A stretch of DNA of 64,000 nucleotides, from contig CACYGT010000001.1 of the NCBI GenBank assembly GCA_902774075.1, positions 7,820-71,819 of the forward strand, written 5' to 3'. The stretch is from an uncultured Bacteroidales bacterium. Lineage in GTDB: Bacteria > Bacteroidota > Bacteroidia > Bacteroidales > Paludibacteraceae. Below are positions 3 to 24,793 of this stretch, one piece after another. The notes beneath the pieces were generated by a model that worked only from the letters and a program-made list of their open reading frames with translations, did not search any database and had not been told where the DNA came from. A program made the translations under genes and the position numbers. How positions within the stretch are numbered: the stretch's first letter is position 1; each line of letters begins with the position of its first letter.

Positions 3-3000
3 GTGTCGGTAGATGTGGAGGGTGATATGTCACAGCTTAAAGCACTTTATGCTGATTTTGATTTGCCTGCAACGAAATTTGCTGAAGATGAAGAAGGCGA
101 GTGGACTTGGGCATTAGGCGCTACTCCGGCAGAAGTCTTAACTCCGATGAAAGGGCGTGCTAATTTAGTAATCACATATACCGCTAAAGCGGGCATCGAG
201 GCAGGAACAAAGCGAGCAACCTTTGTGGCTAAGATGCAAGGAACCAATCCGTCAACGATCAATATTCCTTTGTCCGTTGAGGTTCGTCCGGCCAGCGTCA
301 ATGAGGCAAGTGTAAAAATAGGAGATGCAGAGCCAGTTGGATATGCCACATTGGCAGAAGCTGTAACGGCAGCTAATGCTGCATCCGGTGATGTTACTTT
401 GACCTTGTTGCGCGATGTTTCCGATGCTGTTGTACTGAGCAATAAGATGAAGTTAGATTTGAACAGTTATACACTCAGTAATAATCTGGCAATCGGCTCC
501 GGAGGTGATGTAGAATTGGTTTACAATAAACAAGGTGGTAAAATCACTAAGACAGTTGCTGTTCAGAACGGAGCCACACTAACATTGAATGGCGGTACAA
601 TAGAAGTGAGCGGAACGGGTAGTATGAATCCCGCACAAGCTGTAGTTGCAGTTAATGTGGCCGACGGAGGTAAACTCATCCAAAACGGCGCAACCATTAG
701 CGCAACTGCTTCGACTTGTTATGCCATCGGTATCAATATTGACGGAGAAGCAGAGATAAAAGAGGGTTCTGTTACGGCCCATGCAAATTATACGGCCGCT
801 TTTGCAACGCAAGTTAGTGCAACAGGTAAACTGACTACTACCGGTGGTACGATGAATGCCTCTGTGGATCAGTCGCACAACCCAACAGCCAATCCGGCCG
901 ACCAATCCACATGGTCGAATGCATATGCAGTATATATAACTGCCACAACCGGTAAGGCTGATATTCAAGGTGGTACATTCTATTCTACTTCATCGTACAG
1001 TGGCGCTTTTGCTGTTAGTGCCATCGCGTCATTCGGTAAGTTGACTATCGGGAAGAATGCAGTAGTCTCAGCTCATACAGTTAGCAGTAGTCCTGTGGCA
1101 TATGCGGTTGGTTGTATGGGTAATGCGGACTTGACGGTAAACGGAGGTCGATTCTCTGCTACATATGTAAAAAGCGAACAGACTACACCGTGTCCTCCGT
1201 TCCTTTGCGCAGCCTTTGACAAACTTGATTTCAAAGCCGGAATTATTAAAGCTGATTCGGCTTTTGTGCGTGCCGGCATGTTCCCTGTTACAATGACCTT
1301 GGTTCAGCCAAAACTCTACAATGTGGTAAAGGGTAGCAAAGATTATAACGATGGTTATCGCTATATTGCCGTGTCAAGTTCCATTACAGCTCAAAACGAT
1401 TTAATTGCTATTGGCATTCCGGCAGCACGTATCGGTACAGTGGGTTATACCAAACTAGAGGATGCTATCGCATATGCCAACAACAATCCGAATGAAGAAT
1501 TGGTAATCTTCTTGCAGAATAACTATACGTTACCTGCCGGTTATTACACGATACCCGCCAAAGCGACATTGGTTATCCCGATGAGTGACGAACAATCAAA
1601 GGAAGCTAATGCTTTTCCTCCTCGCGTTTCGTATAATGACATGGATGATTCGCATCCGTATGTAGAACCAACAGAGTTCCGTCGTTTGACTTTTGCAAGC
1701 GGTGTAAACATGGATGTGTTTGGAGATGTAGAGATGACCTGTACGCAGTTTGCTACTAATGAGGCTTATTCCGGTCAGCCGGTAGGTCCTTATGGACACT
1801 TAGTCATGGAAGAGGGAAGTCATATGACACTGCAAGCCGGTTCGGAACTGCGCGCATGGGGATATATGACAGGAAAGGGAGAGACGGATGCTCGTCGTGA
1901 TGCCACCGTTCGCGAGATGTTCCAATTAGGAGACTGGAAGGGAGCTATGACATCGGTAAAGATAACGGGCATGGCGCCTGGTTTTGTGGCAGATGATAGT
2001 GACAAAAAAATCTTCCCGGTTTCTCAATATTTCATCCAGAACGTAGAGTCTCCTGTGAAGTACCATCCGGGAGCAGTACTTTCCACTTCGGCGATGGTAT
2101 CCGAGGGATTATCAGGTTTCTTGGCAGTCACGATGTCTGCTTCCGACATTAAGGTAGTAGGCGTTTCGAACCGCACCGGAGGTGTTAGCGATGAAGCCAT
2201 CTTCCTCCTGGATAATGGAGCAGATGCTGACAATACATGGATACGTAAATGGTATGACGCCGAAAATGACATTCAAGTCTATGATGTCAATAGTGCCGCA
2301 CATATCGGTTCTATGGTATTGGATATGGGAGAATTGGACGTGTCGTTCATTATACCAGGAGCAAAACTTCCGGTGCGCCTCAATTCCGCAAAGTTCGATT
2401 TACCTATCACATGTAATATGAAGATTCACCTTCTTTCTGGTTCGATGGACTTCTTGCAAAATACCAGCCTATTGCCAGGTGCGGAAGTGGAGGTGGATAA
2501 GGAGTCGATAGTACAAGTAGCTAAAGACGATGAAGATCCCGAACATACCGGTGCACTTTATGTCTATGATGCCGAAGACTGGGACACATACGCCTTTTGT
2601 AAAGCCGTAGGCGAGCCTGATGGCGAAGCTTACACCAAGACAGTGCGTTACGCGCCAAGTTGGAACGGTCGTCCCACCAAGCGCGCAGAGAATGTATGTC
2701 CTCCTTCTGCTGCTATTAATGTGCATGGTACGTTCACTACGGCCACCGGATTTGTATACTGTTCGGAGCATGGCGCTAATATTTTCTCGAGTAATGAAGA
2801 TGCTGGTACATTTATCTTTAACGAAGACGCATCAGCAGCAGGCACCAGGATAGTCAATAATGTAAAAGGGGAGAGCACTTATGAGGAACGCACTTTCTAT
2901 CCTGCTAAACTGAAACATAAAGATGGAACGTTTGCGGATACTGAGTCTGCCGTTAGCGGTGATTCCTATTGCTATCAAGAAAATCGCTGGGAAAGTATGC

Positions 3001-5909
3001 GTGTGGATGGTTGCTTCATGGTTAACCATGGAATATATTATGCAAAACCACAAGAATATGTGGCTTTGGCCAATGGTATGACGGAGAATAGCGACCATAC
3101 GTATAGCGATGCTGCCGGAGCCGGACGACTCTTTATTTTGATGGGCGACGAAAGCTGTCAGTGGTGGGAGGTTGAGAAAAAAGACAATCTATACCATTGT
3201 ATCCATCCTGATAATGATACGTATTATTACTGGAAACCAGAAGAGCATGATCCGGACGATCCGGATGCTGTTATTCCTGCTCATTGGGAGGAGAAAAAAT
3301 ATACTATCTCTTGGAAAAACTGGGATGGTACGTTATTAGAGACTATCGGTCCGAAGGAATTGCCGGTAACCAGCTATGAAGTGACCTATGGTACAATGGC
3401 GGAATACCTCGGCACGAACCCGACGCGTGAAGCTACTATCGACTATACGTATGACTTCACCGGTTGGTCTCCGACGCCGGGCAGAGTAACGAGTGACGTG
3501 ACTTATACGGCTACTTACACCGAGAAACCGCGTATGTACACCATCATCTTCTGCCAAGAAGGCGGCGTGGAGATTGAGCGCCATTTCCTTACGCATAACG
3601 AAGTGCCCGTCTGCGAGAACGTACCCACAAAGGTAGGTCATATCTTGCAGTGGAGTCCGGCTATCGCCGCTGTGACGGGTGATGCGACCTACACGGCTAC
3701 CTGGCTTGAGGAGCCACCTACGGAGTTTGAGATTAAGTTCGTTGATTATGATGGTACAACCGAGCTGCAGAAGAGCAACGTAGCAGTAGGCACCATACCG
3801 GCATACACCGGTGAGACTCCGAGTGGAAAACCCGCCACAACTGAGTTTACGTATGTCTTTGACCACTGGTCGCCGACGGTGACAGAAGTGACACAAGCGA
3901 TGACCTATACGGCTGTCTATCGAGAGCAGCAAAAGACCTATGAGATTATCTTCTTGGATGAAGATGATAGCGAAATAGAGCGTCATAACTACACCTACGG
4001 TTCGACACCGGTTTGTGCCGATCTGCCAACGAAGGCTAACACAGCCGAATGGACCTATAAACTGTCATGGGATCCTCAGATTGAAACCGTGCGAGAGAAT
4101 GCCACATACAAGGCCGATTTTGATGCGCTCAAGACAAAGAACAAATATACCGTCTCGGCTAAATGCAGTCCTGCCGGTGCGGCTACTATTACCGGCAATG
4201 GTATATATGAGTATAATACCGCCTCCAACGCGGTAACAATTACGCTGACAGCTAATACAGGCTTTACTTTCCAAGGATGGCAAGATCTCAGCGATAAGAC
4301 CATCACCAACCGTACAACAGCTGTGACGGGCGATGTAAACTTGTTGGCCGTCTTCACTGTAGCCGATCCAGACTATACCATCACGTGGAAGAGTGAGGAT
4401 GGTAATACCACTTTGGCCTCTGTTGGTCAGAAAGCCAATACGGTAACAACCTACACCGGCGCAACGCCGACGAAGGAAGCGACTTCGGCTTATATTTATA
4501 CCTTCGACGGCTGGACGACCGGCGCGAATGGAACAGGTACGTTCTACAAGAACAACCAGACTCCAAAGGCAACAGCCAATGCGACATATTTTGCACACTT
4601 TGCAGAGGAGGCTATCCCGAGTTTGGAGATCTCGAGCGGAACAACGGTATTGACCGAACCGGTAGAGTATCAGAACCTGATTATTAGTTCGGATGGTGTT
4701 AACTCCGGAGAGTTGTTGGGTATTGACAAACTGAGTCTCACAGGTGATGCGTTCTTCGATTTTAAAGTAAACATGAAGACGCATACATGGTATGCAGTGG
4801 CTGTACCCTGGGAAGTTGATTTAACTGACGGCGGCGTACTACTGAATGGTCGTCCATTAACCATCACCACAGAGTACGATGTGATTTATTACAACGGCGA
4901 ACGCCGTGCCGAAGTGGGCCCGCAAAAGACATGGGCTTATGAAACAAGCACGATGCATCCAGGCACTTTGTATTTAGTTGCACTCATGGGTTCTGCACCA
5001 AATGGCCTTCGCTTCAAAGCAAAATCGCACAATATGGCTGATCTGATGAACACCAGTGCCTCTGTTCATCAATATCCGGAGTCAACGGAAAATGATGGTA
5101 AAGATGCGGGATGGAATGGTGTGGCTAACCCTGCTATTTTCCAAGCGTTTGTCAATGCAGGAGCAACTGTTGGTCAGGCCTTTAATTCAGAGACTGGGGG
5201 ATACGATGTAGTGCCGTTACAGACGACAAGGATGGTTGTAGGACAAGGTGTATTCATCCAAGCGCCTGCTGATGCGACCGTCAATGTAGCATATGGTGCT
5301 TCGTATAATAGTTCCGCACCAATTGCAGCTGCACCGCGTCGCGCTGCCGAAGAAACAAATCTGAATGCTTATTACGAAGTTCGTATTTCTCCGATGGAAA
5401 AGCCATACACAGATCGCCTCTTTGTACAAGTTAACGACGATAAAGAGGAAGATGTCTATACGATAGGGAAGGACCTTATCAAAATGGGTATCAGTGATCA
5501 AAAAGCGCAAATGTGGATTAAGCGCTATGATACCAAATTGTGTCTCAATGCAATGAAACCGTCCGACGACAAGGCTGAGTTCCCATTGGGTATCTATGTG
5601 CCTGAAACCGGCGATTACACGATCGGCATTAAGCATGAGGCAGATGAGGAGTCGTCGATCTATCTGACTCGTGATGGAGAGGCTATTTGGAACCTAAGCA
5701 AGGGCGCATATACCACCGAAATGGCATCCGGAACGACGGAACAATATGGTCTGCGTGTGATTGCGAAAGCACCAACGGTTATCACCGGCTTCGACGAAGC
5801 GGTTGTAGACAGTAGAGATACTATTGCGACCAAAGTGCTGATTGGCAACCAAGTATATATAATCCGCGGTGATGAGGTGTACACCATTACCGGTATGAAA
5901 GTGAAATAA
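3..5909 (+). CDS. Giant secreted adhesin-like surface protein, 5'-partial (ORF open to the window edge; at least 1968 aa)
   Basis: Uninterrupted 5.9-kb ORF with no signal peptide at the window-edge N-terminus, so it is truncated. It has a G/T/A/N-rich beta-helix-like region and about six tandem Listeria-Bacteroides-type repeats. A ~400-aa C-terminal module (WYAVAVPW, DAGWNGVANP, APRRAAEE, AQMWIKRYDTKLC) is colinear with the 6305..10369 product. Confidence 0.85.
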   Translation: MSVDVEGDMSQLKALYADFDLPATKFAEDEEGEWTWALGATPAEVLTPMKGRANLVITYTAKAGIEAGTKRATFVAKMQGTNPSTINIPLSVEVRPASVNEASVKIGDAEPVGYATLAEAVTAANAASGDVTLTLLRDVSDAVVLSNKMKLDLNSYTLSNNLAIGSGGDVELVYNKQGGKITKTVAVQNGATLTLNGGTIEVSGTGSMNPAQAVVAVNVADGGKLIQNGATISATASTCYAIGINIDGEAEIKEGSVTAHANYTAAFATQVSATGKLTTTGGTMNASVDQSHNPTANPADQSTWSNAYAVYITATTGKADIQGGTFYSTSSYSGAFAVSAIASFGKLTIGKNAVVSAHTVSSSPVAYAVGCMGNADLTVNGGRFSATYVKSEQTTPCPPFLCAAFDKLDFKAGIIKADSAFVRAGMFPVTMTLVQPKLYNVVKGSKDYNDGYRYIAVSSSITAQNDLIAIGIPAARIGTVGYTKLEDAIAYANNNPNEELVIFLQNNYTLPAGYYTIPAKATLVIPMSDEQSKEANAFPPRVSYNDMDDSHPYVEPTEFRRLTFASGVNMDVFGDVEMTCTQFATNEAYSGQPVGPYGHLVMEEGSHMTLQAGSELRAWGYMTGKGETDARRDATVREMFQLGDWKGAMTSVKITGMAPGFVADDSDKKIFPVSQYFIQNVESPVKYHPGAVLSTSAMVSEGLSGFLAVTMSASDIKVVGVSNRTGGVSDEAIFLLDNGADADNTWIRKWYDAENDIQVYDVNSAAHIGSMVLDMGELDVSFIIPGAKLPVRLNSAKFDLPITCNMKIHLLSGSMDFLQNTSLLPGAEVEVDKESIVQVAKDDEDPEHTGALYVYDAEDWDTYAFCKAVGEPDGEAYTKTVRYAPSWNGRPTKRAENVCPPSAAINVHGTFTTATGFVYCSEHGANIFSSNEDAGTFIFNEDASAAGTRIVNNVKGESTYEERTFYPAKLKHKDGTFADTESAVSGDSYCYQENRWESMRVDGCFMVNHGIYYAKPQEYVALANGMTENSDHTYSDAAGAGRLFILMGDESCQWWEVEKKDNLYHCIHPDNDTYYYWKPEEHDPDDPDAVIPAHWEEKKYTISWKNWDGTLLETIGPKELPVTSYEVTYGTMAEYLGTNPTREATIDYTYDFTGWSPTPGRVTSDVTYTATYTEKPRMYTIIFCQEGGVEIERHFLTHNEVPVCENVPTKVGHILQWSPAIAAVTGDATYTATWLEEPPTEFEIKFVDYDGTTELQKSNVAVGTIPAYTGETPSGKPATTEFTYVFDHWSPTVTEVTQAMTYTAVYREQQKTYEIIFLDEDDSEIERHNYTYGSTPVCADLPTKANTAEWTYKLSWDPQIETVRENATYKADFDALKTKNKYTVSAKCSPAGAATITGNGIYEYNTASNAVTITLTANTGFTFQGWQDLSDKTITNRTTAVTGDVNLLAVFTVADPDYTITWKSEDGNTTLASVGQKANTVTTYTGATPTKEATSAYIYTFDGWTTGANGTGTFYKNNQTPKATANATYFAHFAEEAIPSLEISSGTTVLTEPVEYQNLIISSDGVNSGELLGIDKLSLTGDAFFDFKVNMKTHTWYAVAVPWEVDLTDGGVLLNGRPLTITTEYDVIYYNGERRAEVGPQKTWAYETSTMHPGTLYLVALMGSAPNGLRFKAKSHNMADLMNTSASVHQYPESTENDGKDAGWNGVANPAIFQAFVNAGATVGQAFNSETGGYDVVPLQTTRMVVGQGVFIQAPADATVNVAYGASYNSSAPIAAAPRRAAEETNLNAYYEVRISPMEKPYTDRLFVQVNDDKEEDVYTIGKDLIKMGISDQKAQMWIKRYDTKLCLNAMKPSDDKAEFPLGIYVPETGDYTIGIKHEADEESSIYLTRDGEAIWNLSKGAYTTEMASGTTEQYGLRVIAKAPTVITGFDEAVVDSRDTIATKVLIGNQVYIIRGDEVYTITGMKVK
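3300..4605 (+). repeat. About six tandem 65-75 aa Listeria-Bacteroides (InlB B-repeat-like) units inside the giant CDS
   Basis: Recurring pattern Y(T/E)IxF/W..(D)G......YG..P......P(T)K......Y.F.GW.P....V..(D)ATYTA.Y. Examples: YTISWKNWDG...TYTATYTE, YTIIFCQEGG...TYTATWLE, FEIKFVDYDG...TYTAVYRE, YEIIFLDEDD...TYKADF, YTITWKSEDG...TYFAHF. Confidence 0.6.
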
Positions 5910-5926
5910 TGTAAAATTGAAATAGT

Positions 5927-6058
5927 ATGAAAAAGAAAATGTATGTAGCACCTCAAGTAGAGAAAGTGCAATTGATGGCAATGGGTATCTTTATGGGTAG
6001 TACTGAGCCACCCATAGATCCCAACCAGGCTCCTAAGAATGGCGCTCCTATTCCCTAA
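5927..6058 (+). CDS. Micro-ORF (43 aa), MKKKMYVAPQVEKVQLMAMGIFMGSTEPPIDPNQAPKNGAPIP, paired with the upstream giant gene
   Basis: Hand-translated (below the ORF-track length cutoff). ATG lies 17 nt after the giant gene's stop and is followed by a strong terminator. Its N-terminus is conserved with the micro-ORF at 10372..10515 (M-x-K-K/R-M-Y-V/I-A/S-P-x-V-E), with synonymous codon differences at P, V and E. Confidence 0.5.
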   Translation: MKKKMYVAPQVEKVQLMAMGIFMGSTEPPIDPNQAPKNGAPIP

Positions 6059-6079
6059 CATGGAAATTTAGAGCGAATG

Positions 6080-6120
6080 AAAAATCGCATATGCGTGAGG
6101 CGTGTGTGCGATTTTTTTTT
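6080..6120 (+). terminator. Rho-independent terminator ending the giant-gene + micro-ORF unit
   Basis: AAAAATCGCATATGCG-tgagg-CGTGTGTGCGAT followed by T9. Roughly 12-bp stem (6084-6095 / 6101-6112, some G-U pairs), 5-nt loop, A-run before and T-run after. Confidence 0.8.
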
Positions 6121-6183
6121 GTTTGCTAAAATGTTAGTTTTGCGTTGCAAAATGTAGATTTTTCGCATTTTTTTGATCTTTTT

Positions 6184-6215
6184 CTTGCGTATTTCCAAAA
6201 AAAATTGTACCTTTG
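6184..6215 (+). promoter_or_regulatory. Bacteroidetes sigma-A type promoter (-33 cTTG, -7 TAccTTTG) for the 6305 gene
   Basis: TACCTTTG at 6208-6215. CTTGCGTAT at 6184-6192, 20 nt upstream, with an A8 tract in the spacer. Same extended pattern as the other promoters in this window. Confidence 0.6.
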
Positions 6216-6304
6216 CAGCGCTTTTTAGCGTTGCACGCCTATTTTCGTGTGCATGTGCGCGAGAGGCGAAAGAGAAAATAGAGAAATATTTAAATGCATG
6301 AAAT

Positions 6305-9300
6305 ATGAAAATAAAAGTGTTTGATATGAGAAAGTTTTTTTACACACTGAGCGTATTAGTTTGTTTGCTCGGGGTGAGTGGAAATGCGTGGGCAGGAGGT
6401 AGTACTACTTATTACTCTGCCTTGAAGGCAACAGTGTCTTCAACGGGTGGCGGAAAAGTATATGCCGGAACATCCAATAGCGCCGGAACGTATGTGGAAG
6501 GCACTTCGACATCCGACAAGCAGTCCTCAACAACGCAAAATGAAGCAAAAAATTTCTATGCTTTTGCGCAATCCAATGACGGCTACTCTTTTACGGGCTG
6601 GAGCACTACAAAAGGAGGGGATGTCGTTTCGACGGACAACCCGTATAAGGTAACCGTAAACTGCTCGTCTTCTACGGAAAGCAGTCCTACGACTACAACG
6701 GTGTTTGCTAATTTTGTAGAGAACGTTGCCATTTCTGTTAATTTTGTGCCGGGTACGAACGGTTCTTATACCGTCAATGGTACCAAAGTGAGCACTTCGC
6801 CTTCTCAGGCAATCACCTGCGAGGGAGAGGTTTCTTTGGCGGCAACCCCTGCTTCGGGATATAAGTTCTTTGGCTGGTACACCAGCACCGATGGCGGAAC
6901 GACGAAGAACTATTTCTCCTATTCGGCATCTACTTCCCATACTTTCTTGGCGGCCGCGACGGTATATGCTGAGTTTATTTCGTCGTCCGTAGCCACCTTT
7001 ACTGTAAAAGGGACGTCGGACTATTATTACGACTTGGCGAAAGGACTCACAGCAGCAGCTTCTTCGTCTTCTAAAGTGTTGGTTGTAGCGACAAATGGTA
7101 CTGTGGCTGCGGGTAATTATACCATCCCAAGTGGAGTGACGTTGCTGGTGCCTTATAATGATGGATATACGGTTAAGACTACATTGCCGGCGTACGAGAA
7201 TAATAACAATAATGTAAAGACGCGCTCGCTGTTCAGACAACTTACGCTAACGAGTGGAGTAAGTTTAACGGTAAGTGGATCTATGTGCGTTGGTGGTAAT
7301 TTGCATGCGAGAAATGGTGGCCAAATGACCGCTACAGTGTTGGATAACTATGGACGTCTTCAGCTGGAAAGCGGAAGTAATGTTATTTTGAATGGTAACT
7401 TATACTGTTGGGGGTATATTACAGGAAGCGGTGCTATAGATGCACGAAATGGTTCTGTAGTTTATGAACCATTCCAAATGGATTTCCGTGGAGGTACACA
7501 CTGTTCAAATACCTATAAGAGCGCTTTCCCTATGTGTCAATATTACGTTCAAAACATAGAGGCTCCTATAACTTTTAATAATGGCGCAACGGAAACGTTA
7601 GTTACATGTTGTTATGCGAGCTATTCGTTGTATGATGGTACGGCATCGTTCATAGGTAGTAACGGCATGTTTAGATTGGAGCCTGGGTCGAAGCTTACGC
7701 GCCATTATGATGGTGCAAAAGATAGGCAATGTTATGATTTGTATGGTAATGCTTCTATACAAGACATATCCGTTTCGGTAAGTGTTATGAAGTTGGCTTC
7801 AAAAGACTATGTCCTTCCTATTAATAATAATATGGATTTGACAATTCATAGCGGCACAACAACAATTTACTATGATTTATCTTTGTTGCCGGATTCAAAA
7901 GTGATTATTGAAGAGGGGGCTACTGTGGAAGTGAAGAAGAATCTATATATCTACGACAGAAGTGATTGGCGTAATGAAGAAACCGGTTATGGTTATTTTG
8001 GAATAGGCGCAGATATAAATCCTGTTCCTTATTCCCCGACAAAAACAGGAAGCAGAACGTCTGCAGGGCTTACTGATGCACATGTGGTTGTGAATGGCAC
8101 ATTAAAATCGTTGAGTTCGAGCGGGAAAATCTATACGACTACGCATGGAGCAGACATTTGTTCAACAGGTGATGGTAAAATCGTTTTGGGTGTTGCACCG
8201 ACAAGTACATCTTCTTTTAAACAGGGTATTTCCACGGCAAGTAGTGTACAAGACGTTCCTGTGAATGCTGCCAAACTACAAAATGCCGATGGTTCTTATC
8301 TCGCCACATCAGGATCTGCTGCCAATACCACCATCAACTACAAGAACGGTCACTGGGGATGGGTTGGAATATGGAAGAACGGAGATGAAGTTCTCAAGAC
8401 AGTGAATGTTTGTACAGAAAATCTTTTAGTAGTAGACAGTGCTCCGGCACTCCCCCAACCATATTCTGATGAGGATTACGAATACATATGCGAAGGATGG
8501 ACTCCGGTTAGAAACGGAGACAAGCAGGAAATCGTTTATACGCCCAACTTTAGAGATCTTCCTATTATTAAGTTTAAGATGGGAACGAATCATAAATCAG
8601 AACACAAACAAGCTTATGACTACGACTCAATTCCTTCTTATAACGCTCCCAACTGCTATGGAAAAAATAATAAGTATATCTATGAGTTTATTGGATGGAG
8701 CGAGACTGCAGATGGAGAAATATTGGAGACTTTATTGCCAGTCACGGGTCCTAAAACGTATTATGCACAATATAGGGAAATTCCGAACCTCGAAATAGGT
8801 AATGTACAAACAGGCGAGGAACAGGGAGAGCCACAGTCTGATCCAGAGGTAGAAGAAAGAACGGTGAATGAGTCCTTTACTGTCGACACGACAACGATTG
8901 GAGATAATGGTTCATTGATTGTAACGACCAAAAATGACAATCATGTTACTCTTGAAACAGAAGTAATAACAGTACAAGACGGAGGTTCGATTACTATTGA
9001 AGAAGGTGCTTCTATTAAGACGGATGAGTTCGTGCTGGAAGCTACTCTCGGAGTTATCGAAGATACTAATGGAGATAACATTACCGTCATACCGAACAAT
9101 TCTTCCGGCCAGGTAAATGGTGGTGACAATATTAAAGGCAGACCGGCAGAACCGACTGCAGAACCGACAGAGCCAAAAGTTTACTTCAAGCTCGCTCATA
9201 AAGGAGGTTTCAAGAAGCGCACTTGGTATGCTATTGCAGTACCTTGGACAATCGATGTACCTCACCACGCAGAGGGTGGTATCTCCATCTACAAAAATGG

Positions 9301-10369: not shown

Positions 10370-10371
10370 CT

Positions 10372-10515: not shown

Positions 10516-10538
10516 AAGGTCATAATCCAAGTATTCGC

Positions 10539-14813: not shown

Positions 14814-14846
14814 TTAATATTAATATTAACAAACATTATTAACAAC

Positions 14847-17800: not shown

Positions 17801-20033
17801 AGAGTTGTATATCCGCATCAAGACCGATCAGAAACTGACCATCTCTTCTTCGACGCCGATGTACAGCACCCTGACCACTCCGATCAACACAGCCGAGTTG
17901 GCTCAGTTAGCTGTTCCGAACGTTGATTATGACGTTCCTGCCGGCGGTAAATGGTTTGCTGTTTGCTTACCGTACATCCGTAACAACTATAAGATTACGA
18001 AAGAATCCAAGTTCACTGTTACCAACCCGCATGCGGAGGCAGTGAAGGTGAGCGGTACGGCTACATGGATGGATACATTGATCTATGATATCCCGAGACG
18101 CGAGCGTTCTATCAAAGCGAATGCAAGCTACGAGAAGACCTTCTACCGCGCTATTGAGAAAGGTCTCGAACGCGCAGGCTTTAACTACTCGTTAGAAGAG
18201 ACGAACCCGACATTCGTAGATAGCATCGTACGTGAGTATGTCACCGATGATTCGCTAACAATGTACATCTATTTCAATGCAGAGAAAGATCTGAAGTTCC
18301 GCATTGACTTAGAGCGTACGACCGCTGAGTCTTGCAACAACGCAATGATGTTCGACTGGGAGCACGGTAATGTCAATGAGGCCGATACGTGCATGTGGTA
18401 TAAGGTAGAACTGGATTCGACCTTCATCCCCAAGGATAAGGATATCTTGCTGCATGTAGAGAACTGGAGCAGTACAGCAGAGAACACGACAGCGGAGATC
18501 CGCTTCATGTGCGATGATGTGCCGACGACCATAAACCAGACGATTGCTGCTAACGGCGAGAAATCGCACTCGATTGACCGCGACTTGATTGATCGTATGG
18601 AGTGGCCGAACTACATGTTCATTAAGTTCACTTCCGAGCAAGCTACTCATATCTGGGCAGAACTCGTTCCCGCTAAGCCACGTGATAGCCTTGTATTCAA
18701 CGAGAAACTGTATCTCTGCGACGGCGCTACCTATACGGATACCTTGGTTATCCCGAACGTAGATCACGTGATCAACTATGCAGACGCTTCGACGCTGAAA
18801 TGGACCGATAAGATTGAGTTCCAGAACGATACAGCGGTTGCTGTTTGGGATTCGATTGTACACTTCACCGTGATTCCGTTGGTTGACCCGACGATGTACA
18901 ACTTCGCAGACATTCCTGCTGAGTCGAAGCCTGTTATCAAGAAGGGCAACCCGATTGATGTAACGGCTGCAACGACCTGGCTGAACGGTAAGTTCGCTGA
19001 GGAGCAAGCGGCTGCAACGGGTGACTCGATCAAGAAAGTAGATACGCTCCTCTGGGAGTGGAAGTGCAAAGACTGCACCGAGTTTGCAGCACTGCCGGCT
19101 ACGGCGCTTGACCACGAGGCAGTCGTGCTCCGCTTCGTCGCAGTGACACAGTGTGAGGACTCCCTCTATTCGGATGACCTCTACCATCATATCCACGACA
19201 CCGTAGAGGTAGAGAGCTGTAAGGCATACAAGTGGGATGCTACCGGTGTAACCTATACCGAGAGTACCACCGATTCTGCAACCTACCATAAGTATGTAAA
19301 CGGTTGTGACAGTATTTCCGTTCTCGACCTGACGATCACTCCGCTTACTCCGGGTGACACCACTGCTACGGCTTGTAACTGGTTCATCTGGCATGTGACG
19401 GGTGATACGCTCACCGCAACCGGTGACTATGTAGGTCATATCGACGTAGACGGTTGCGACAGTACGGTTACGTTGCACCTCACGGTTAACAATCCGTATA
19501 TCGCTACCCTTCCGGCTCTAGCACGTTATGGCAACCGTCTGTTGATGATTGACCGCAACGCTATCAAGGACATGGGTTGGAACCTGCCGGATTCGATTGA
19601 CGCAGGCTATGTACAGTGGTTCAAAGAGCTGCTGCCGAACGACAGCCTCGTCGGAACCGGTTACTACTACACCTCTAAGGACGGTAGCCCGCTGGTAGGT
19701 ACGTACTATGCACGTATCGAGATTGCTGCTACTACCGAAGGCGAGTGCGGACAGATCGGTGAAACGAACCGTCTGGTATGCGCTCCGGCTGCAGGTGCTC
19801 CGGCACTGATGCCGTCGCTGGCTAAGCCGAACGAGGATATCTTAGTGATCAACCTCGATCCGGAGAAAGAGACCGTCATTCGTGTATTCACCACCGAGGG
19901 CTTGGTACAGAGTCAATACGTCGTTCGCGGCGAATCGACCTACACCATCAAGGCTGCGGCTGATCACGGCTTCTATCTCGTTGAGCTGAGCAATGACAGC
20001 ATGAATTCAACATTACGTTATATTGTTAAATAA
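14847..20033 (+). CDS. Giant T9SS cargo protein (1728 aa) with about ten tandem WY domains and a type-A C-terminal sorting domain
   Basis: Signal peptide MKKFLLLTMVSMMTVFAMA. Repeated ~120-130 aa units. Two GCDS modules near the C-terminus. The C-terminal ~73 aa resemble a T9SS CTD. Confidence 0.9.
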   Translation: MKKFLLLTMVSMMTVFAMAIGRNDGSTKANAIDFDWDGGHVQVGDTVKWYRVDLTPLYSEENPALTLYMVSQSLLDTVDCKLNATVAGQSEEKTYTIMPGKTMSWTANASMLVRLKQTEVYLTLKTTPRNADSESARIKLSAKVYDAIDLDEACKNAKLFDWTNGITQSRGAMQWFKVDLKKAKAKDSVDVCIAITNTGSGTLNLRAGQSLDCPSSGMTKRSFVIAAGKTVYDTIPLSMIKSVAADELYVTFDNNQPIAVKANYVAWPPVPLLDCDAVTWDSLPVVTNQVLNPGKHYLKINVQQMNDSAKYEPEFTFRNNGDADATINRKMSFECPVWGWQGDEITLAAGAEKIEVIKKNVVEGITVPYIYLVIENDQPFTLIGRYKHVREGKACKSNIDFNWETGHTQDGKTTQWYAIDVTEAKDDIRDIKITVKNLGYDKATVSASLAFSCPYIDLQEITRTLAKDESITRKIGYSTYAMMSDTIWVGVTTDQDIQILADTSSIETKPADPNDPCLEAIEFNWEDGAKQSANDTVWYKLGMDEVRELQQFPTIYVRNLSSENEATIYGALSLECPDTIPNQERSLKIAKNGTYSKKISRNMFENIKQDTIYLRVVATEDVAFEIRLTEEAEGASCTSAIRFNWVSGNDQAANANLWYAVDLREAMQSNKDIHIKAVNKGDTVCKGTVEMAYTCPYESTQSAGFKINPKDSVTKTMPHSSLETLTDSTLYVRVYGNTPLHFDVRMVDPAHFDTIECAEIEANLTELKWNTLYTQKTDTAWYLLKKESLDSLFSGEVTPEAHAWDTLGRPIKIKAEIAYHCPVTATMMNKQITLTDGEYVKKIDPSTAQQLAGRDTVLVRIITDGAFKFEARLVSPWTGNKPKDAIRIDWNKEYVQEANTIMWYRIRSYELKQLENLDGRSLHVFSKNHGGKATMEVAVYEDIAQTDKEDMIEYYTGRKEVRKIPAGHTVSRNIPSYVIKGLADKELYIRIKTDQKLTISSSTPMYSTLTTPINTAELAQLAVPNVDYDVPAGGKWFAVCLPYIRNNYKITKESKFTVTNPHAEAVKVSGTATWMDTLIYDIPRRERSIKANASYEKTFYRAIEKGLERAGFNYSLEETNPTFVDSIVREYVTDDSLTMYIYFNAEKDLKFRIDLERTTAESCNNAMMFDWEHGNVNEADTCMWYKVELDSTFIPKDKDILLHVENWSSTAENTTAEIRFMCDDVPTTINQTIAANGEKSHSIDRDLIDRMEWPNYMFIKFTSEQATHIWAELVPAKPRDSLVFNEKLYLCDGATYTDTLVIPNVDHVINYADASTLKWTDKIEFQNDTAVAVWDSIVHFTVIPLVDPTMYNFADIPAESKPVIKKGNPIDVTAATTWLNGKFAEEQAAATGDSIKKVDTLLWEWKCKDCTEFAALPATALDHEAVVLRFVAVTQCEDSLYSDDLYHHIHDTVEVESCKAYKWDATGVTYTESTTDSATYHKYVNGCDSISVLDLTITPLTPGDTTATACNWFIWHVTGDTLTATGDYVGHIDVDGCDSTVTLHLTVNNPYIATLPALARYGNRLLMIDRNAIKDMGWNLPDSIDAGYVQWFKELLPNDSLVGTGYYYTSKDGSPLVGTYYARIEIAATTEGECGQIGETNRLVCAPAAGAPALMPSLAKPNEDILVINLDPEKETVIRVFTTEGLVQSQYVVRGESTYTIKAAADHGFYLVELSNDSMNSTLRYIVK
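14925..18690 (+). repeat. About ten tandem protein-domain repeats (~120-130 aa each) inside the 1728-aa CDS
   Basis: Each unit opens with (C)..A..F.W..G.......(W/H)(Y/F).(V/I)(D)L. Examples: ANAIDFDWDGG..VKWYRVDL, ACKNAKLFDWTNG..MQWFKVDL, ACKSNIDFNWETG..TQWYAIDV, PCLEAIEFNWEDG..TVWYKLGM, SCTSAIRFNWVSG..NLWYAVDL, KDAIRIDWNKE..IMWYRIRS, SCNNAMMFDWEHG..CMWYKVEL. Most units have a mid-unit x-C-P (LDCPSSG, FECPVWG, FSCPYID, LECPDTI, YTCPYES, YHCPVTA) and close with (L)Y(V/I)R(V/I). The units are diverged at the DNA level. Confidence 0.7.
19812..20030 (+). other. T9SS type-A C-terminal sorting domain (CTD) of the 1728-aa protein
   Basis: PSLAKPNEDILVINLDPEKETVIRVFTTEGLVQSQYVVRGESTYTIKAAADHGFYLVELSNDSMNSTLRYIVK. 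This fits the remembered CTD pattern (P-N-x-x-x-l-x-i near the start, an i-x-v-f-x-x-x-G mid strand, G-x-Y-l-v and a K-terminal strand). Not HMM-verified. Confidence 0.65.
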
Positions 20034-20050
20034 GAATAGGAGGTAGCACA

Positions 20051-21514
20051 ATGAAGACTTTTAAATCAATTCTGATTGCAGCCACCCTGATATGCGCTTC
20101 TGCGTCGATGCTTTCGGCGCAGGAAGCAGCGCAGCCCGCACAAGGCCATCAATGGAAAGTGGCTATCGGCGACTCCGTAAAGATTAAACCTGAGTGCCAA
20201 GAGTACCTCACCGGTGAGACTCCCTCCAGCTGGGTATGGGATAAGATTCACACCGTTCGTCAGCTGGGAACCAAACGTTTCCCGGAAGGCGTACTGCTGA
20301 TGAATATCTACTCCTGGATCTGCGAAGACTGCTTAGTTCCTGCCGGTCAAACCGAGGAAGAGGCAGCACAAGCAGCCAAAGGTCAAAAGACTGAAGTAGC
20401 CAATGAGGCACCGAACAAAGCTAAAGAAGCTGTAGCTCCGGCAGAAGCAGAAGCCGCAGCTGCAGCTGCATCCGCAGCCGCAGCCGCTGGTGCGGCAACC
20501 GAACAAGCTCAAGCTGCTGAAGGCGCACAAGCAGCAGCACAACCTGCTGAAGGCGCACAAGAGGCACAACCGGCTGAGGCGGCTCAAGAAGCAGCTCCTG
20601 CTGCAGAGCAACCTGCTGAGCAGGCTGCCGCAGAAGGTGACTCGATTCGCACCAAGCAGAACTTCGACCACAACTACCATCGCTTCACCATCGGTGTTCG
20701 CGGCGGTGCCGCTTCGCTCTTGCACGAGACCACAAACGGTCATTGGGCTTGTGGTGGCGAAGGTGTTCTCGACCTGCAGTATGCACATTACTGGTCCAAG
20801 GACGGTCGTCCTGTTGATCTCGGTTTGATCACCGGTATCGGTATCGGTTATTCGCAGAGCGGTATGAACGCCAATGTGGATACCTACAAGCAGATTCCGG
20901 ATCCTACCAGCGGCAAGAACATCGACTATACCGTGCATGTAGACAACGTCAACGAACGTGACGGTGTCGTAGTATTGGAGATCCCGTTGATGTTCTCGCT
21001 CATCCATGAATCCGGATTCTTCTTCAATGTAGGTCCTCGATTCATGTTGCCGGTTTATCTGCCCTATACGCAAACCCTCTCCAACAATGCCAACACGTAT
21101 ATCTCGGCCTTCTTTGAGGAGACCGGCGTGCTGGTGTCGAACGAGGTGATCACCGGTCTGTTGAAAGAGACGGATTATACCACCAAGGGTAGTCCTGTTA
21201 ACCCGGTATCGTTCAATCTTCTTTTGGGCGCAGAGTTAGGATACGAGTGGACGCTGAAGAACGGTAACTCGCTCGGTCTGGGTGTATACGGTAACTATGG
21301 TGTATATCATAGCTTCACCAACAACACGACAGACAAATCGCTGGTTGAGGTTACTCCTCCGACAGATAGCGACGTAGCTGCCATCAATGTTCATTCTGCC
21401 ACGAGCACTTATGCGAACAAATTGGGTTACTTCGGAGCCGGTATCAAGTTGGCATACCACTTCAACTTTCCCAAGAAGAACGCGAAGAACTACCGTGCAC
21501 AAAAGTTATTCTGA
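20051..21514 (+). CDS. Outer-membrane beta-barrel protein (487 aa) with a small N-terminal globular domain and an Ala/Glu/Gln-rich spacer
   Basis: Signal peptide ...ASMLSAQ. ~70-aa Cys-containing N-domain and ~100-aa low-complexity linker. The C-terminal ~290 aa have alternating-hydrophobic strands, end in aromatic F (..YRAQKLF) and are rich in G/Y/N, as in porin-like barrels. Confidence 0.75.
   Translation: MKTFKSILIAATLICASASMLSAQEAAQPAQGHQWKVAIGDSVKIKPECQEYLTGETPSSWVWDKIHTVRQLGTKRFPEGVLLMNIYSWICEDCLVPAGQTEEEAAQAAKGQKTEVANEAPNKAKEAVAPAEAEAAAAAASAAAAAGAATEQAQAAEGAQAAAQPAEGAQEAQPAEAAQEAAPAAEQPAEQAAAEGDSIRTKQNFDHNYHRFTIGVRGGAASLLHETTNGHWACGGEGVLDLQYAHYWSKDGRPVDLGLITGIGIGYSQSGMNANVDTYKQIPDPTSGKNIDYTVHVDNVNERDGVVVLEIPLMFSLIHESGFFFNVGPRFMLPVYLPYTQTLSNNANTYISAFFEETGVLVSNEVITGLLKETDYTTKGSPVNPVSFNLLLGAELGYEWTLKNGNSLGLGVYGNYGVYHSFTNNTTDKSLVEVTPPTDSDVAAINVHSATSTYANKLGYFGAGIKLAYHFNFPKKNAKNYRAQKLF
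20342..20638 (+). repeat. Low-complexity A/E/Q/P-rich coding repeat (imperfect tandem AEGAQ / QPAE units)
   Basis: Encodes ..AEAEAAAAAASAAAAAGAATEQAQAAEGAQAAAQPAEGAQEAQPAEAAQEAAPAAEQPAEQAAAEG. The DNA shows reiterated gctgaaggcgcacaag and related units. Confidence 0.8.
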
Positions 21515-21521
21515 TTAGCGC

Positions 21522-22193
21522 ATGACGATACTTTGTTGCGAAACAAGTACATCTGTTTGTTCGGCCGCCATCTGCAAGGATGGCGAGCCGATTAAGCAGT
21601 GTATCTGCCGTGAGGGAAGCAACCACGCCCGGTTGCTACCTCTCTATATAGAGGAGTTGCTCTCGTTCGCGCGAGAGCAATCCTTCTCTATAGACGCGGT
21701 GGCCTTGTCCGAAGGTCCGGGCAGTTATACCGGCCTCCGTATCGGCACGGCAACCGCCAAAGGACTCTGCTACGGACTCAATGTCCCACTGATACCTGTG
21801 CCGACGCTGGAGGTGCTCAAAGTAGCGTCCGGTATAAAGGAAGGAATCCTCATTCCCATGATTGACGCACGCCGAATGGAAGTGTATACTTCGGTGAGCG
21901 GTGAGGGGTTACCGGTTAGCGGAGCTCGCGCTGTCATAGTGGAGAATGAAGAAAGTCTCTATTCCGGTAACGGGGAGATCTATTACTTCGGTGACGGAGC
22001 AGAAAAGTGCTTAAAAGTCTTGACAAAGTCTAATTGGCACTATATCCCCGATATCGTGCCCGAAGCGCAATACGTAGGCCTGTTAGCCGAATGCGGTCAA
22101 CGAAAAGTAGAAAGTAAGGACTTGGCGTACTACGAGCCGTTCTATCTGAAAGAGTTTGTGGCCGCACAAAGTCATGTCAAAGGTTTGAAATGA
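21522..22193 (+). CDS. tsaB: tRNA threonylcarbamoyladenosine (t6A) biosynthesis protein TsaB (YeaZ)
   Basis: 223 aa. Has SEGPGSYTGLRIGTATAKGL, typical of TsaB/YeaZ, plus an N-terminal ILCCETST ASKHA-fold start. Confidence 0.85.
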   Translation: MTILCCETSTSVCSAAICKDGEPIKQCICREGSNHARLLPLYIEELLSFAREQSFSIDAVALSEGPGSYTGLRIGTATAKGLCYGLNVPLIPVPTLEVLKVASGIKEGILIPMIDARRMEVYTSVSGEGLPVSGARAVIVENEESLYSGNGEIYYFGDGAEKCLKVLTKSNWHYIPDIVPEAQYVGLLAECGQRKVESKDLAYYEPFYLKEFVAAQSHVKGLK

Positions 22194-24793
22194 AAATATC
22201 AAATCTTAAATATCAAATTGTAAATATCATCATTTTAATGATGATCCTCTCCTCGTGTTCGACAACGAAGAACACCTGGGCAAGTCGTTCCTTTCACCAG
22301 ACGAAAGTCAAATATAACATCCTTTATAACGGCAATGTGGCATATGAGGAAGGCCTCAAAGCAATCCGCGATGCCAACACCGACGACTATAGTCGTATCC
22401 TAAACCTTTATCCGGTATCTAACCATCAAGCGGCTGCAGCAGCCAGCTCTCAGATGGACCGAACGATTGACAAATGCCGCAAGTGCATCAAGCTGCACTC
22501 TATTAAAACGAAACCAAAACGTAACCCAAAGAAGGTTAACGATCCCAAATACAAACTGTGGTTGCAATCGGAGGAGTTCAATGCCAACATGGACTTGGCC
22601 TGGATACGTCTGGGCGAAGCGGAGTTCCATAAAGGCGATTTCCTCGGCGCCGTCAGTACGTTCAATTATATCATCAACCACTACCAGAACGACCCGGATA
22701 TGATTGCGCAATGCCAGTTATGGATTGCGCGTGCGTATGCAGAGATGGGCTGGCAGTACGAGGCGGAAGACATGCTCAACCGCGTCAACCTGGATGCACT
22801 GAGCCGTAAGCATGCACGTCTCTTTTCTGCTGTCAAAGCGGATGTGCTCTTGCACGGCGAGCATTACCACGAAGCTATTCCATTCGTCAAGATAGCTATC
22901 CCGTATGAGAAACGCAAGATCTACCGTCCGCGGTTTGTGTATGTGTTAGGTCAGTTATACGAGCGCGAAGGCAAACGCGAAGAAGCTATCCGCGCATATA
23001 AGTACGTTATTCGTATGGCGCCACCCAATGAGATGGATTTCAATGCGCGCATTCATATGGCGGAGCTGGGCGGCAAGAGTTCGCTGAGATCCTTGCGTGC
23101 GATGTCCAAACAGTCCAAACACAAAGACCGGTTAGACCGGATCTACGGCGCGATGGGTAATATCTACTTGCAGTCAAAGGACACCTCCAAAGCGCTGGAG
23201 ATGTACGAGGAGGCGATAGCCAAAGCAACACAAGCAGGGACGGCCAAAGCCGCTGTGCTCGTGCGCGCGGGCGATATATATTATGAACAACGCGCGTACG
23301 TGAAGGCGCAACCTTGTTACCGCGAAGCCGTGACTATCCTCACGGCGGAGAATGATGCTTTTGCACGCGTGCAGAAGCGCTCGGAAGTGCTGGACGAATT
23401 GATTGTCGCTTATACCCAAGCCCAACTGCAGGACTCGCTGCAACGCCTGGGTCATATGACTGAAGCCGAACAGCGCGCAATAGTGGATAAGATCATTGCG
23501 GACTTGATAGCAGCAGAGAAAGCCGATTCGATCAAGCAGACAGAGGACGCGCGTGAGTTGGCACGTGGTGACTCCCGACCGCGCAGTGTGAACACAGCGA
23601 ACATGTTAGGCGGCTCGGGGGCGCAGAAAGGTGAGTGGTATTTCTACAATCCGCAACTCATCAAACAAGGCCAGCAGGAGTGGCGTCGCCGTTGGGGAAA
23701 CCGTCCGCTGGAGGATAACTGGCGAAGACAGAACAAACAGGTTTTCATAACGGATGAAGGAATGAACGGTGAAGGGACGAACGGTGATATACAGGCAGGA
23801 GACTCTACCAAGTTGGCCGGTGATTCGATCGTTTCTCGTCCGGCTCTGGAGACCGATACGCATAAGCCGGAATACTACCTGCAGCAGATACCGTGCACCG
23901 AAGAGGATTATGCCATCAGCGACAGTCTGTGGCGAGAGGCGATGGTGGCGCTCTATTATATCTACCGCGACAAGGTAGAAGATGAGTCGCTGGCACAAGA
24001 GACCTTGCAGGAACTGGAGAAACGCTTCCCGCACCATGCTTGTGTACAAGCTATCCATGAGGATGAAGAGCTGCGCGCCTTGCGGCATGATGCCGCTTAT
24101 ATCGCGCGTATGCGGAAGCTCTTAGCGGAGCAAGACTCGCTTTATGCCGCTACGTATCGGGCGTATACCAAAGGACAGTATGCCATCGTCAAGGCCAATA
24201 AACAACAGGCTCAGACCGAGTTTCCGGAAAGCCGTCTGATGCCGCGATTCCTGTTCCTCAACGCCGTGTCTGTGGCTCGTACGGAAGGACAGGACGCTTT
24301 CGTGGTAGAGCTGCAAGACCTGGTAACCAAGTACGGCGAGACCGAGTTAGGTACGATGGCCAAGGATATGTTAGCGATGTTAGGTCAGGGTCGCGAGAGC
24401 CAGACCGGCGGTTCGACAGGCAGCTTGGCCGACATGCGCGGACAGGTTGAGGAAGAACCCGAAGATACGACGGCAGCGCAAGAGTGGTCGGAGGACCGCA
24501 AGCAACCGTCTGTAGTGCTGCTTATCATGGCGAAAGCCGACGAGCAGGCCCTGAACGAACTGCTGTACGAAGTGGCATTGTTTAACTTCTCGCAGTTCCT
24601 GATTCGCGATTTCGAACTACAGAAACTGCCTGTTTGGGGTGAAGGATGCGCATTGCGTGTCAGCGGCTTTGCCGACCTCGACGAAGCCGAATGGTGGGTG
24701 GACCTTGTTAACAAGAACGCCGAGATGAAGGCGGTACTGGCGAATATACAAATAAAGGCAGTTACCGAAGTCAACCTCCCCTTATTGAAATAA
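22190..24793 (+). CDS. porW: TPR-repeat lipoprotein, likely the T9SS component PorW/SprE
   Basis: 867 aa. Lipobox LSSC, then NTWASRSFHQTKVKYNILYNGN and TPR-like helical repeats. Size and N-terminal motif match my recollection of SprE/PorW. ATGA overlap with tsaB. Not search-verified. Confidence 0.6.
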   Translation: MKISNLKYQIVNIIILMMILSSCSTTKNTWASRSFHQTKVKYNILYNGNVAYEEGLKAIRDANTDDYSRILNLYPVSNHQAAAAASSQMDRTIDKCRKCIKLHSIKTKPKRNPKKVNDPKYKLWLQSEEFNANMDLAWIRLGEAEFHKGDFLGAVSTFNYIINHYQNDPDMIAQCQLWIARAYAEMGWQYEAEDMLNRVNLDALSRKHARLFSAVKADVLLHGEHYHEAIPFVKIAIPYEKRKIYRPRFVYVLGQLYEREGKREEAIRAYKYVIRMAPPNEMDFNARIHMAELGGKSSLRSLRAMSKQSKHKDRLDRIYGAMGNIYLQSKDTSKALEMYEEAIAKATQAGTAKAAVLVRAGDIYYEQRAYVKAQPCYREAVTILTAENDAFARVQKRSEVLDELIVAYTQAQLQDSLQRLGHMTEAEQRAIVDKIIADLIAAEKADSIKQTEDARELARGDSRPRSVNTANMLGGSGAQKGEWYFYNPQLIKQGQQEWRRRWGNRPLEDNWRRQNKQVFITDEGMNGEGTNGDIQAGDSTKLAGDSIVSRPALETDTHKPEYYLQQIPCTEEDYAISDSLWREAMVALYYIYRDKVEDESLAQETLQELEKRFPHHACVQAIHEDEELRALRHDAAYIARMRKLLAEQDSLYAATYRAYTKGQYAIVKANKQQAQTEFPESRLMPRFLFLNAVSVARTEGQDAFVVELQDLVTKYGETELGTMAKDMLAMLGQGRESQTGGSTGSLADMRGQVEEEPEDTTAAQEWSEDRKQPSVVLLIMAKADEQALNELLYEVALFNFSQFLIRDFELQKLPVWGEGCALRVSGFADLDEAEWWVDLVNKNAEMKAVLANIQIKAVTEVNLPLLK

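Follow-up and report, generated by a model that had tools for sequence, protein, structure and literature searches.

What is built by a bacterial locus in which giant secreted proteins, an outer-membrane barrel and a type IX secretion system (T9SS) component follow one another on a single strand? This question is raised by a stretch of DNA of 64,000 nucleotides (nt), hereafter the window, from a gut/rumen Bacteroidales of the Paludibacteraceae type, the first 25 kb of which carry eight genes, g1 to g8, all on the forward strand. An earlier note on this DNA, for which all nine open reading frames (ORFs) were recovered at the same positions, had described these 25 kb as one same-strand locus, in which the co-transcription of huge cargo-like proteins with a barrel and a PorW/SprE-like T9SS component would suggest a dedicated surface structure or export module. 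The present analysis leads to another partition of the locus, in which g3, g4, g5 and g6 make up a self-contained and autonomous cassette conserved across Paludibacteraceae. We read it, with a probability of roughly 0.55, as a T9SS surface-protein cassette with g5 as its core, a short C-terminal tail as a second type of export signal, g6 as a carrier or anchor, and porW as a neighbour.

The cassette comprises g3 (10708-13527, 939 amino acids (aa)), g4 (13524-14813, 429 aa), g5 (14847-20033, 1728 aa) and g6 (20051-21514, 487 aa), each with a predicted signal peptide and none with a whole-protein match to Pfam or NCBIfam. It is followed by g7, or tsaB (21522-22193), and g8, or porW (22190-24793). 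The tiny junctions reported earlier are all present, with ATGA overlaps at 13524 (g3/g4) and 22190 (g7/g8) and gaps of 33, 17 and 7 nt between the other consecutive genes. Scanning one genome per GTDB species revealed a g6 relative in 154 species, the best 80 of which are all Paludibacteraceae or uncultured Bacteroidales metagenome-assembled genomes from rumen and gut, and a database search with g6 returned more than 850 relatives, every one of them unannotated. When 84 fetched loci (L001 to L084, 81 of them non-redundant) were searched by tblastn with g1 to g9, a full-length g5-like gene was found directly 5′ of g6 in 62 of the 67 loci having at least 7.5 kb of DNA upstream of g6; all 62 had a preceding g4-like gene, itself usually preceded by a g3-like gene. 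The five other loci display a different, shorter cargo gene before g6, with only its last ~200-295 aa in common with g5. This order is kept down to 35% identity of the g6 barrel. Because it recurs in dozens of species the array is far beyond chance, and the part of the earlier proposal that opposed a dedicated module to random adhesin genes is retained for the cassette (62/67 loci).

The part that tied this module to PorW fared less well. Downstream of g6, tsaB-porW is found in 54 of the 79 loci with downstream DNA and is lacking in the other 25, one of which has a g6 identity of 53%. In distant loci, g6 closes the cassette and opposite-strand or unrelated genes come next. Where tsaB-porW is present, the block runs on into miaB, greA, HIT and M13 peptidase genes, as it does in the window. 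In one clade, the cassette lies against the tsaB-porW-(tRNA-Pro)-miaB-greA-HIT-M13 peptidase series, a block of housekeeping genes. Since the cassette persists without tsaB-porW in 25/79 loci, the adjacency of porW is lineage-specific and not a functional requirement. The two gene identifications themselves were well founded. The g7 product matches TIGR03725 (134 bits for a cutoff of 69), and g8 is a true PorW orthologue (NF052312, 583 bits for a cutoff of 250, E = 1e-174) with a lipobox LSSC in its N-terminus (...MMILSSC|STTK) and matches to several Pfam families of tetratricopeptide repeats (TPRs); the gene order 5′ of tsaB is also found in relatives, so that neither of the two points that would have refuted the earlier note applies.

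Could g3 through porW nevertheless be one export module, with PorW dedicated to, or stoichiometrically coupled with, the cargo and the barrel? The housekeeping role of tsaB, which serves t6A synthesis, is unrelated to secretion, and yet this gene stands between the cassette and porW; PorW is a single-copy core component required for all T9SS cargo; and the miaB, greA, HIT and M13 genes beyond it form a syntenic housekeeping block. Together with the 25 loci mentioned above, these points make such a module quite unlikely, although it would account for the tight junctions, for the lack of a promoter motif between g3 and porW and for the adjacency observed in 54/79 loci. It also draws on the position of PorW in Porphyromonas gingivalis, where the PorK/N ring and the Sov translocon are linked by this protein (PMC8754138), which makes a periplasmic partner for the N-terminal domain of g6 conceivable.

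Within the cassette, g5 and g6 are closely linked. Only 13-17 nt separate g6 from the cargo gene in 41 of 41 evaluable non-redundant loci, and the 17-nt spacer of the window (20034-20050, GAATAGGAGGTAGCACA) is nearly invariant in nucleotides among relatives whose flanking proteins are only 40-55% identical. It contains the Shine-Dalgarno (SD)-like core AGGAGG (20038-20043), the GGAGG part of which lies 6-9 nt before the g6 ATG and is kept down to 35% g6 identity. Of 36 putative starts in the window, that of g6 alone has an AGGAGG within 25 nt upstream. Ribosomes of Bacteroidia are described as SD-blind, with rpsU of Flavobacterium johnsoniae as the known exception (PMC7797042, PMC9976891, PMC13000453), which makes a conserved AGGAGG before g6 unusual. 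This junction argues for a tightly coupled expression of cargo and barrel.

The cargo so coupled is a modular giant. Behind its signal peptide (MKKFLLLTMVSMMTVFAMA|IG...), residues 22-1282 of g5 (14910-18692) form ten tandem modules of ~120 aa, each starting with C..A..F.W..G..Q....WY.VDL, followed by a Cys-rich region (18693-19796) and a C-terminal domain (CTD, 19821-20030) that ends at the last residue. The module has no sequence match in Pfam, NCBIfam or the PDB. In 67 g5 orthologues, the number of modules ranges from 8 to 10 and is nearly always ten, despite sequence identities of ~30-50%; repeat adhesins, by contrast, typically vary in copy number. In the window, the CTD aligns with positions 3-72 of the 72 positions of the T9SS sorting model TIGR04183 at 20.4 bits, under the cutoff of 23, and with PF18962 at E = 0.009. 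Since 28 of 28 non-redundant C-termini of proteins encoded 5′ of g6 match TIGR04183 (best E = 6e-11), g5 is taken as a type A cargo whose copy of the domain happens to score low, and no type B CTD model appears among the family matches reported for the C-termini of g6 partners. The earlier note had singled out g5 as the only protein with a canonical T9SS CTD: the domain is here too read as one of type A, but with 20.4 bits against 23 the window copy is hardly canonical, and holding g5 to be the sole bearer of a secretion signal overlooked a short tail shared by g1, g2, g3 and g4.

These four proteins, which include the adhesin-like giants g1 (3-5909, at least 1968 aa, its 5′ end cut by the window edge) and g2 (6305-10369, 1354 aa, with a signal peptide), all end with the pattern K-x-[IL]-x-N-G-Q-x-[YF]-I-I-R-x-G-x-x-Y-x-x-x-G-x-x-[IV], located at 5826-5906 in g1, 10286-10366 in g2, 13447-13524 in g3 and 14730-14810 in g4. 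A hidden Markov model (HMM) of the 27-aa core of this tail retrieved 112 ORFs from the window and the loci, and 111 of these have it at most 8 residues away from the stop; g1 to g4 are the only ORFs that it matched in the 64-kb window. The tail proteins g2 to g4 carry signal peptides. Across the loci, tail and CTD exclude each other: 79 ORFs bear a CTD, 111 bear the tail, and no ORF bears both. They also replace one another: in five distant g5 orthologues (L071, L073, L077, L080 and L084) the tail stands in place of the CTD at the same junction, three of these loci (L073, L077 and L084) encoding a separate CTD protein of 267-285 aa after g6, and conversely the g4 orthologues of L055 and L062 have a CTD-like end instead of the tail. 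On genetic evidence only, this mutual exclusion and the swaps in g5 (5 loci) and g4 (2 loci) suggest that the tail is functionally equivalent to the long CTD.

The predicted structure of the g4 tail is a three-stranded meander (strands 401-408, 411-416 and 419-421) with values of 69-83 in the predicted local distance difference test (pLDDT), preceded by a low-confidence hinge. Upstream of the core, by 10-11 residues, 54 of 91 tails display a [GDTSAE][IVLMF][DE] motif, which lies at a median distance of 37 aa from the C-terminus (41 aa in g1 and g2). Short CTDs of 43-55 aa, made of one three-stranded sheet and preceded by a PT/GI cleavage motif, have been described in Prevotella intermedia, where they were experimentally found to be cleaved and glycosylated and were modelled on PorV in the same way as long CTDs (PMC11969387). 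By analogy, the tail is most likely a short T9SS export signal working like these. Searching a database of 5.8 billion proteins with a 42-aa alignment of the tail yielded 17 short fragments, which came with neither taxonomic nor domain information.

A different function of the tail also has to be weighed, in which it would be a docking or assembly peptide joining g1 to g4, by beta-strand addition, to the modules of g5, to g6 or to a small CTD protein, the result being a scaffold fitted with plug-in subunits. Such a peptide would suit the hinge-separated mini-meander, the lack of detectable similarity to CTD models and the near-fixed number of ten modules in g5; in addition, at least one CTD protein accompanies the tail proteins of every cassette, including those in which the tail is on g5 (as in L073, L077 and L084). 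It would, however, leave Sec-signal proteins of 1,350-1,970 aa with no evident route across the outer membrane, and the exact replacement of the CTD at the same junction in orthologues is what alternative sorting signals would show. Furthermore, short three-stranded CTDs are a proven class of T9SS signal (PMC11969387). We regard docking as the unlikely function of the two, and export as the preferred one.

What, then, is the protein so strictly placed behind g5? The AlphaFold model of g6 agrees with the linker-bearing beta-barrel foreseen earlier: an N-terminal beta domain (residues 32-99, 20144-20347, pLDDT 80-90), a disordered linker of ~100 aa rich in A, E, Q and P (20348-20644) and a barrel (residues 205-475, 20663-21475). 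Across orthologues the linker measures 46-158 aa and is the least conserved part (identity 0.26), the N-terminal domain being better conserved (0.64) than the barrel itself (0.54). The two termini of outer-membrane barrels generally face the periplasm, and the N-terminal domain of g6 should therefore be periplasmic, as should its linker. Searches of Pfam and NCBIfam with 36 members of the g6 family gave no match to PorP/SprF (PF11751/TIGR03519) at E up to 1, nor did the barrel segment alone match these two models at E up to 10. Among the matches listed for the 36 members at E up to 1 (25 of 61), none is to the PorV, PorQ, PorT or PorG models of NCBIfam; those present are mostly compositional matches of the linker (TonB, TolA, DnaX), with a few marginal others. 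We therefore predict, from sequence and model, that g6 belongs to an undescribed and unnamed family of outer-membrane barrels.

This family extends well beyond the cassette. An exhaustive profile search gathered 537 clusters at 50% identity, many of which are barrel-only proteins of ~290 aa, unnamed and with only sub-threshold OMP_b-brl matches. Two inspected barrel-only relatives are encoded by the last gene of an operon composed of a 776-901-aa protein with Flg_new_2 or leucine-rich repeats (LRRs), a protein of ~370 aa, a protein of ~260 aa ending in ...LRYIV, which is the CTD subtype of g5, and the barrel. In a locus fetched for a barrel-only relative (L085, 1-2838), the gene for another CTD-ending protein overlaps by 4 nt the next gene, which encodes 286 aa ending in ...SYVCRCVRDF; this Cys-x-Cys tail resembles the twin-cysteine motif of SprF, and a classical PorP/SprF-type pair may thus lie beside the g6-type pair.

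The pairing of a type B cargo with a cognate barrel is an established logic of the T9SS (PMC9143113, PMC12618676). By analogy we infer that g6 is a cognate carrier or anchor for g5, resembling PorP/SprF in action while standing outside that family. The alternative is that g6 is a structural or porin-like outer-membrane protein following an OmpA-like logic, simply co-inherited with g3 to g5, which would be ordinary T9SS adhesins served by PorV, PorU and anionic lipopolysaccharide (A-LPS) alone. Generic barrel matches in Foldseek, the weak OMP_b-brl similarities and the known use of PorV by type A cargo (PMC12618676) are all compatible with such a protein. Generic porins, however, do not normally stay with a single cargo gene over such divergence, and here a 13-17-nt junction with a nucleotide-conserved spacer is kept in 41/41 loci, while the pairing survives the replacement of the cargo (5 loci) and is found again in the remote barrel-only relatives. 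A porin-like g6 is accordingly held to be rather unlikely, and the carrier or anchor role preferred.

Cysteines in the N-terminal domain of g6 called for a closer comparison with gliding systems. C49 (20195-20197) and the pair C91/C94, arranged as C-E-D-C (20321-20332), are present in the closer clade (52-56 of 78 orthologues) and replaced by H/V/N, G and D in distant loci; the C-terminal tail of g6 has no Cys, and hence no periplasmic twin-cysteine tail of the SprF kind. A disulfide tether similar to those of SprF or PorG, mediated by this C-x-x-C, was considered and downgraded on account of its absence from distant orthologues. Elsewhere in the window, at 42280-43881 on the forward strand, a 533-aa protein of the FGE-sulfatase fold has the gliding lipoprotein GldJ as its best match (TIGR03524, 348 bits for a cutoff of 458); it resembles PorK/GldK less strongly, and its gene does not adjoin any of the size of porL, porM or porN. 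Both features could be invoked for a mobile adhesin of the gliding type, in which g5 would be an SprB-like, track-driven protein and g6 an SprF-like carrier tethered to a GldJ/K track: the operon logic recalls sprCDBF, and the C-x-x-C of the window's clade recalls the twin cysteines of SprF (PMC12635249). This seems highly improbable. The GldJ match falls short of its cutoff, the cysteines are lost in distant orthologues, the CTD of g5 is of type A and not of type B, g6 matches no PorP/SprF model, and gliding has not been reported for Paludibacteraceae, for the T9SS of which no literature was found.

The two remaining members of the cassette appear related to its core protein at the level of profiles. 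The earlier note had proposed that the 939-, 429- and 1728-aa proteins share domain families. BLAST detected no shared sequence among g3, g4 and g5, but the proposal holds for profiles built on ortholog alignments, through g3: its residues ~28-155 align with the g5 module (hhalign probability 76%, E = 2e-5), and its C-terminal region aligns both with that of g4 (95%, E = 3e-8) and, twice, with the Cys-rich region of g5 (94% and 92%). The HMM of the g5 module matched neither g3 nor g4, and hhalign of g4 against the module was also negative. In many relatives (L001, L005-L007, L010-L014 and others) g3 is represented by two adjacent genes encoding a protein of ~610 aa without the tail and one of ~450 aa with it; others have the fused form, of 864-1057 aa. 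The split N-terminal gene has a conserved C-terminus (...LPAGTYTLRGQNDEIELKL) that is CTD-like in look; TIGR04183 matched 6 of the 17 C-termini tested, a set made of split g3 N-terminal genes and other sequences, and our own CTD HMM gave E = 0.03-1. The g4 model (pLDDT 88.8) is a stack of beta-sandwich or jelly-roll domains, for which Foldseek retrieved, with low TM-scores, SID-1 ectodomains, the tandem collagen-binding domains of ColG, CUB domains and the beta-sandwiches of glycosidases, and no catalytic fold, which points to a binding or structural role. Searches by sequence in the PDB with g6, g5, g3 and g2 were empty or gave spurious results.

How far the genes of the window are transcribed together can be judged from their flanks. 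The paralogy of g1 and g2 claimed earlier is real, with 39% identity across their last ~400 aa, and g1 has weak matches to Listeria-Bacteroides repeats. The same three-part module recurs behind each of the two giants: a small ORF comes first, then a hairpin and its T-run, and last an A-tract leading to a TAnnTTTG promoter motif. Behind g1, a 43-aa ORF (5927-6058, MKKKMYVAPQVEKVQL...) starts 17 nt past the stop and is followed by a terminator-like hairpin and T-run at 6079-6120, then by TAccTTTG at 6206-6215, ahead of g2. Behind g2, a paralogous 47-aa ORF (10372-10515, MSKRMYISPIVEVLNV...) starts 2 nt past the stop, and the hairpin and T-run at 10539-10576 precede a Bacteroidetes-type promoter match TTTG...TAacTTTG (10649-10680, with TAnnTTTG at 10671-10680) located 5′ of g3, where full -33/-7 motifs are present. 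The two small putative ORFs share M-x-K-[KR]-M-Y-[IV]-x-P-x-V-E and match no NCBIfam family; a similar 50-aa ORF lies near 3433 in locus L054. No repeats of an invertible, phase-variable promoter were found near the g2 and g3 promoters. Thus g1 and g2 are predicted to be separate transcription units, each with its own terminator and promoter.

The same-strand locus of about 25 kb would thus comprise three units. The third would plausibly run as g3-g4-g5-g6-tsaB-porW from a promoter at ~10.65-10.68 kb to a hairpin at 24.8 kb. The motif at 10671-10680 is the last of its kind on the forward strand before 25624, since from 10673 to 25624 this strand has no TAnnTTTG, for about 3.4 expected occurrences. 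Hairpin-like matches do exist within the array, where the earlier note had seen no terminator; they are weak and their number (17, for 15.8 expected) is that of chance. The end of the array at porW was correctly placed, the hairpin at 24801-24822, which likely closes the transcription unit, abutting a convergent, minus-strand tRNA-Pro(GGG) at 24825-24899 that bounds the array. G+C content is 0.43-0.475 in the low region spanning 1-12000, which takes in g1, g2 and the beginning of g3, for about 0.49-0.545 elsewhere in the window, and this low value over the giants g1 and g2 could reflect either protein composition or a more recent acquisition.

Two other observations concern the flank and the remainder of the window. 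A 493-aa miaB ORF with a GTG start (24836-26317) overlaps the minus-strand tRNA-Pro(GGG) and is therefore over-extended at its 5′ end, the true start being likely an ATG near 24974 (MTKKFYIETYGCQMN). At 35151-35990, on the forward strand, a protein of 279 aa reaches 227.3 bits with TIGR02172 and so narrowly misses the cutoff of 228.2; this model stands for a paralogous family originally defined in Fibrobacter succinogenes.

Taken together, these elements allow a mechanism to be proposed, in which the g3-g6 cassette would most likely give rise to a cell-surface structure built via the T9SS. After Sec export, the type A CTD of g5 would allow the T9SS to recognize this protein, which would display its ten beta-sandwich modules and a Cys-rich stalk on the surface, while g3 and g4, as well as the unlinked g1 and g2, would be exported by means of the short tail. 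Translated immediately after the cargo gene from the conserved SD-like junction, g6 would act as the carrier or anchor of g5, its N-terminal domain hanging in the periplasm on a flexible linker of the TonB/TolA kind. In the window's clade, tsaB and porW would be housekeeping neighbours read through from the cassette promoter.

Several observations weigh against this proposal. The CTD of g5 in the window scores below the curated cutoff of TIGR04183, and all type A CTDs use PorV (PMC12618676), so that a private barrel would be unneeded for export. The tail has no match to TIGR04183 or PF18962 at E up to 10, and its profile aligns with that of type A CTDs at a probability of 3% in hhalign, over the Y...G motif only; this is unlike the short P. 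intermedia CTDs, most of which are reported to be detectable by classical CTD models (PMC11969387). The tail had been considered as a condensed type A CTD, and that option was set aside because the profile-profile alignment was not significant; what is claimed here is an analogy of function, and not membership of the family. For its part, g6 fits no T9SS barrel family searched, and Foldseek returned only generic barrels of 8-12 strands for it, with TM-scores below 0.55. Because the cysteines of its N-terminal domain are unconserved across the family, a tether of the SprF/PorG kind would not be general, and since g6 still follows a tail-bearing g5, it does not go with a single signal type.

A bolder arrangement would build on the docking function of the tail: g5 as a cell-anchored scaffold of ten equivalent sockets, held in the outer membrane by g6, into which g3, g4 and unlinked giants such as g1 and g2 would dock by their tails as plugs. 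They would form a cellulosome-like, modular surface organelle of Bacteroidales, put together downstream of the T9SS, whose g5:g6 stoichiometry would be set by the SD-like junction although ribosomes of this phylum normally ignore SD sequences. We consider this a speculative and improbable extension of the cassette reading.

In T9SS models, PorV acts as the general shuttle for all type A cargo, and type B cargo relies on private PorP/SprF-like barrels encoded next door (PMC12618676). In this framework one would not expect a giant with a type A CTD to be coupled, as it is here in at least 80 species, to a private barrel from another, unnamed family. If the proposed functions are right, cargo-specific carriers or anchors extend past type B signals, minimal three-stranded signals occur beyond P. 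intermedia, and a conserved AGGAGG start site occurs within a class described as SD-blind. As an annotation rule, the tail being missed by CTD HMMs, T9SS cargo would be under-counted in the genomes that carry it. Metagenomes of rumen and gut, ecosystems where surface adhesion to particles plays a central part, contain the cassette family in abundance.

Comparison with known systems delimits what is original in this cassette. Like the PorV-dependent type A cargo represented by the gingipains and by TfsA and TfsB of the Tannerella S-layer, g5 combines a Sec signal peptide with a C-terminal type A domain; it differs from them by its coupled barrel and its ten undescribed modules, the genes for gingipains and TfsA/TfsB having no private barrel gene. 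PorW/SprE offers no such contrast, as g8 resembles known members in its equivalog match far over the cutoff, its lipoprotein nature and its TPRs; the protein is ordinary, and lineage-specific only in lying right behind tsaB and the cassette. With the short P. intermedia CTDs the tail has in common its very small size, three predicted strands, a G-[IV]-type motif in the preceding coil, and coexistence in the genome with long CTDs, on LRR or adhesin-like giants; its 27-aa core (about 37-41 aa counted from the upstream motif) is nevertheless shorter than their 43-55 aa, and motifs B, D and E could not be aligned in order. The nearest parallels to the g5-g6 pair are SprB-SprF, PG1035-PorP and sprCDBF, where a large surface-protein gene is likewise followed by a gene for a barrel of ~280 residues, with accessory genes upstream. 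As with PorP/SprF carriers, g6 adjoins a CTD cargo gene and the pairing is kept when the cargo changes (PMC9143113, PMC12618676), but the partners of PorP/SprF have a type B CTD, whereas that of g6 has a type A-like CTD or the short tail, and where SprF has a C-terminal twin-cysteine tail, g6 has an N-terminal domain on a long linker (PMC12635249). The logic of a T9SS cargo and its cognate barrel is thus known; the new elements are an unnamed barrel coupled to type A cargo and a short tail missed by current HMMs.

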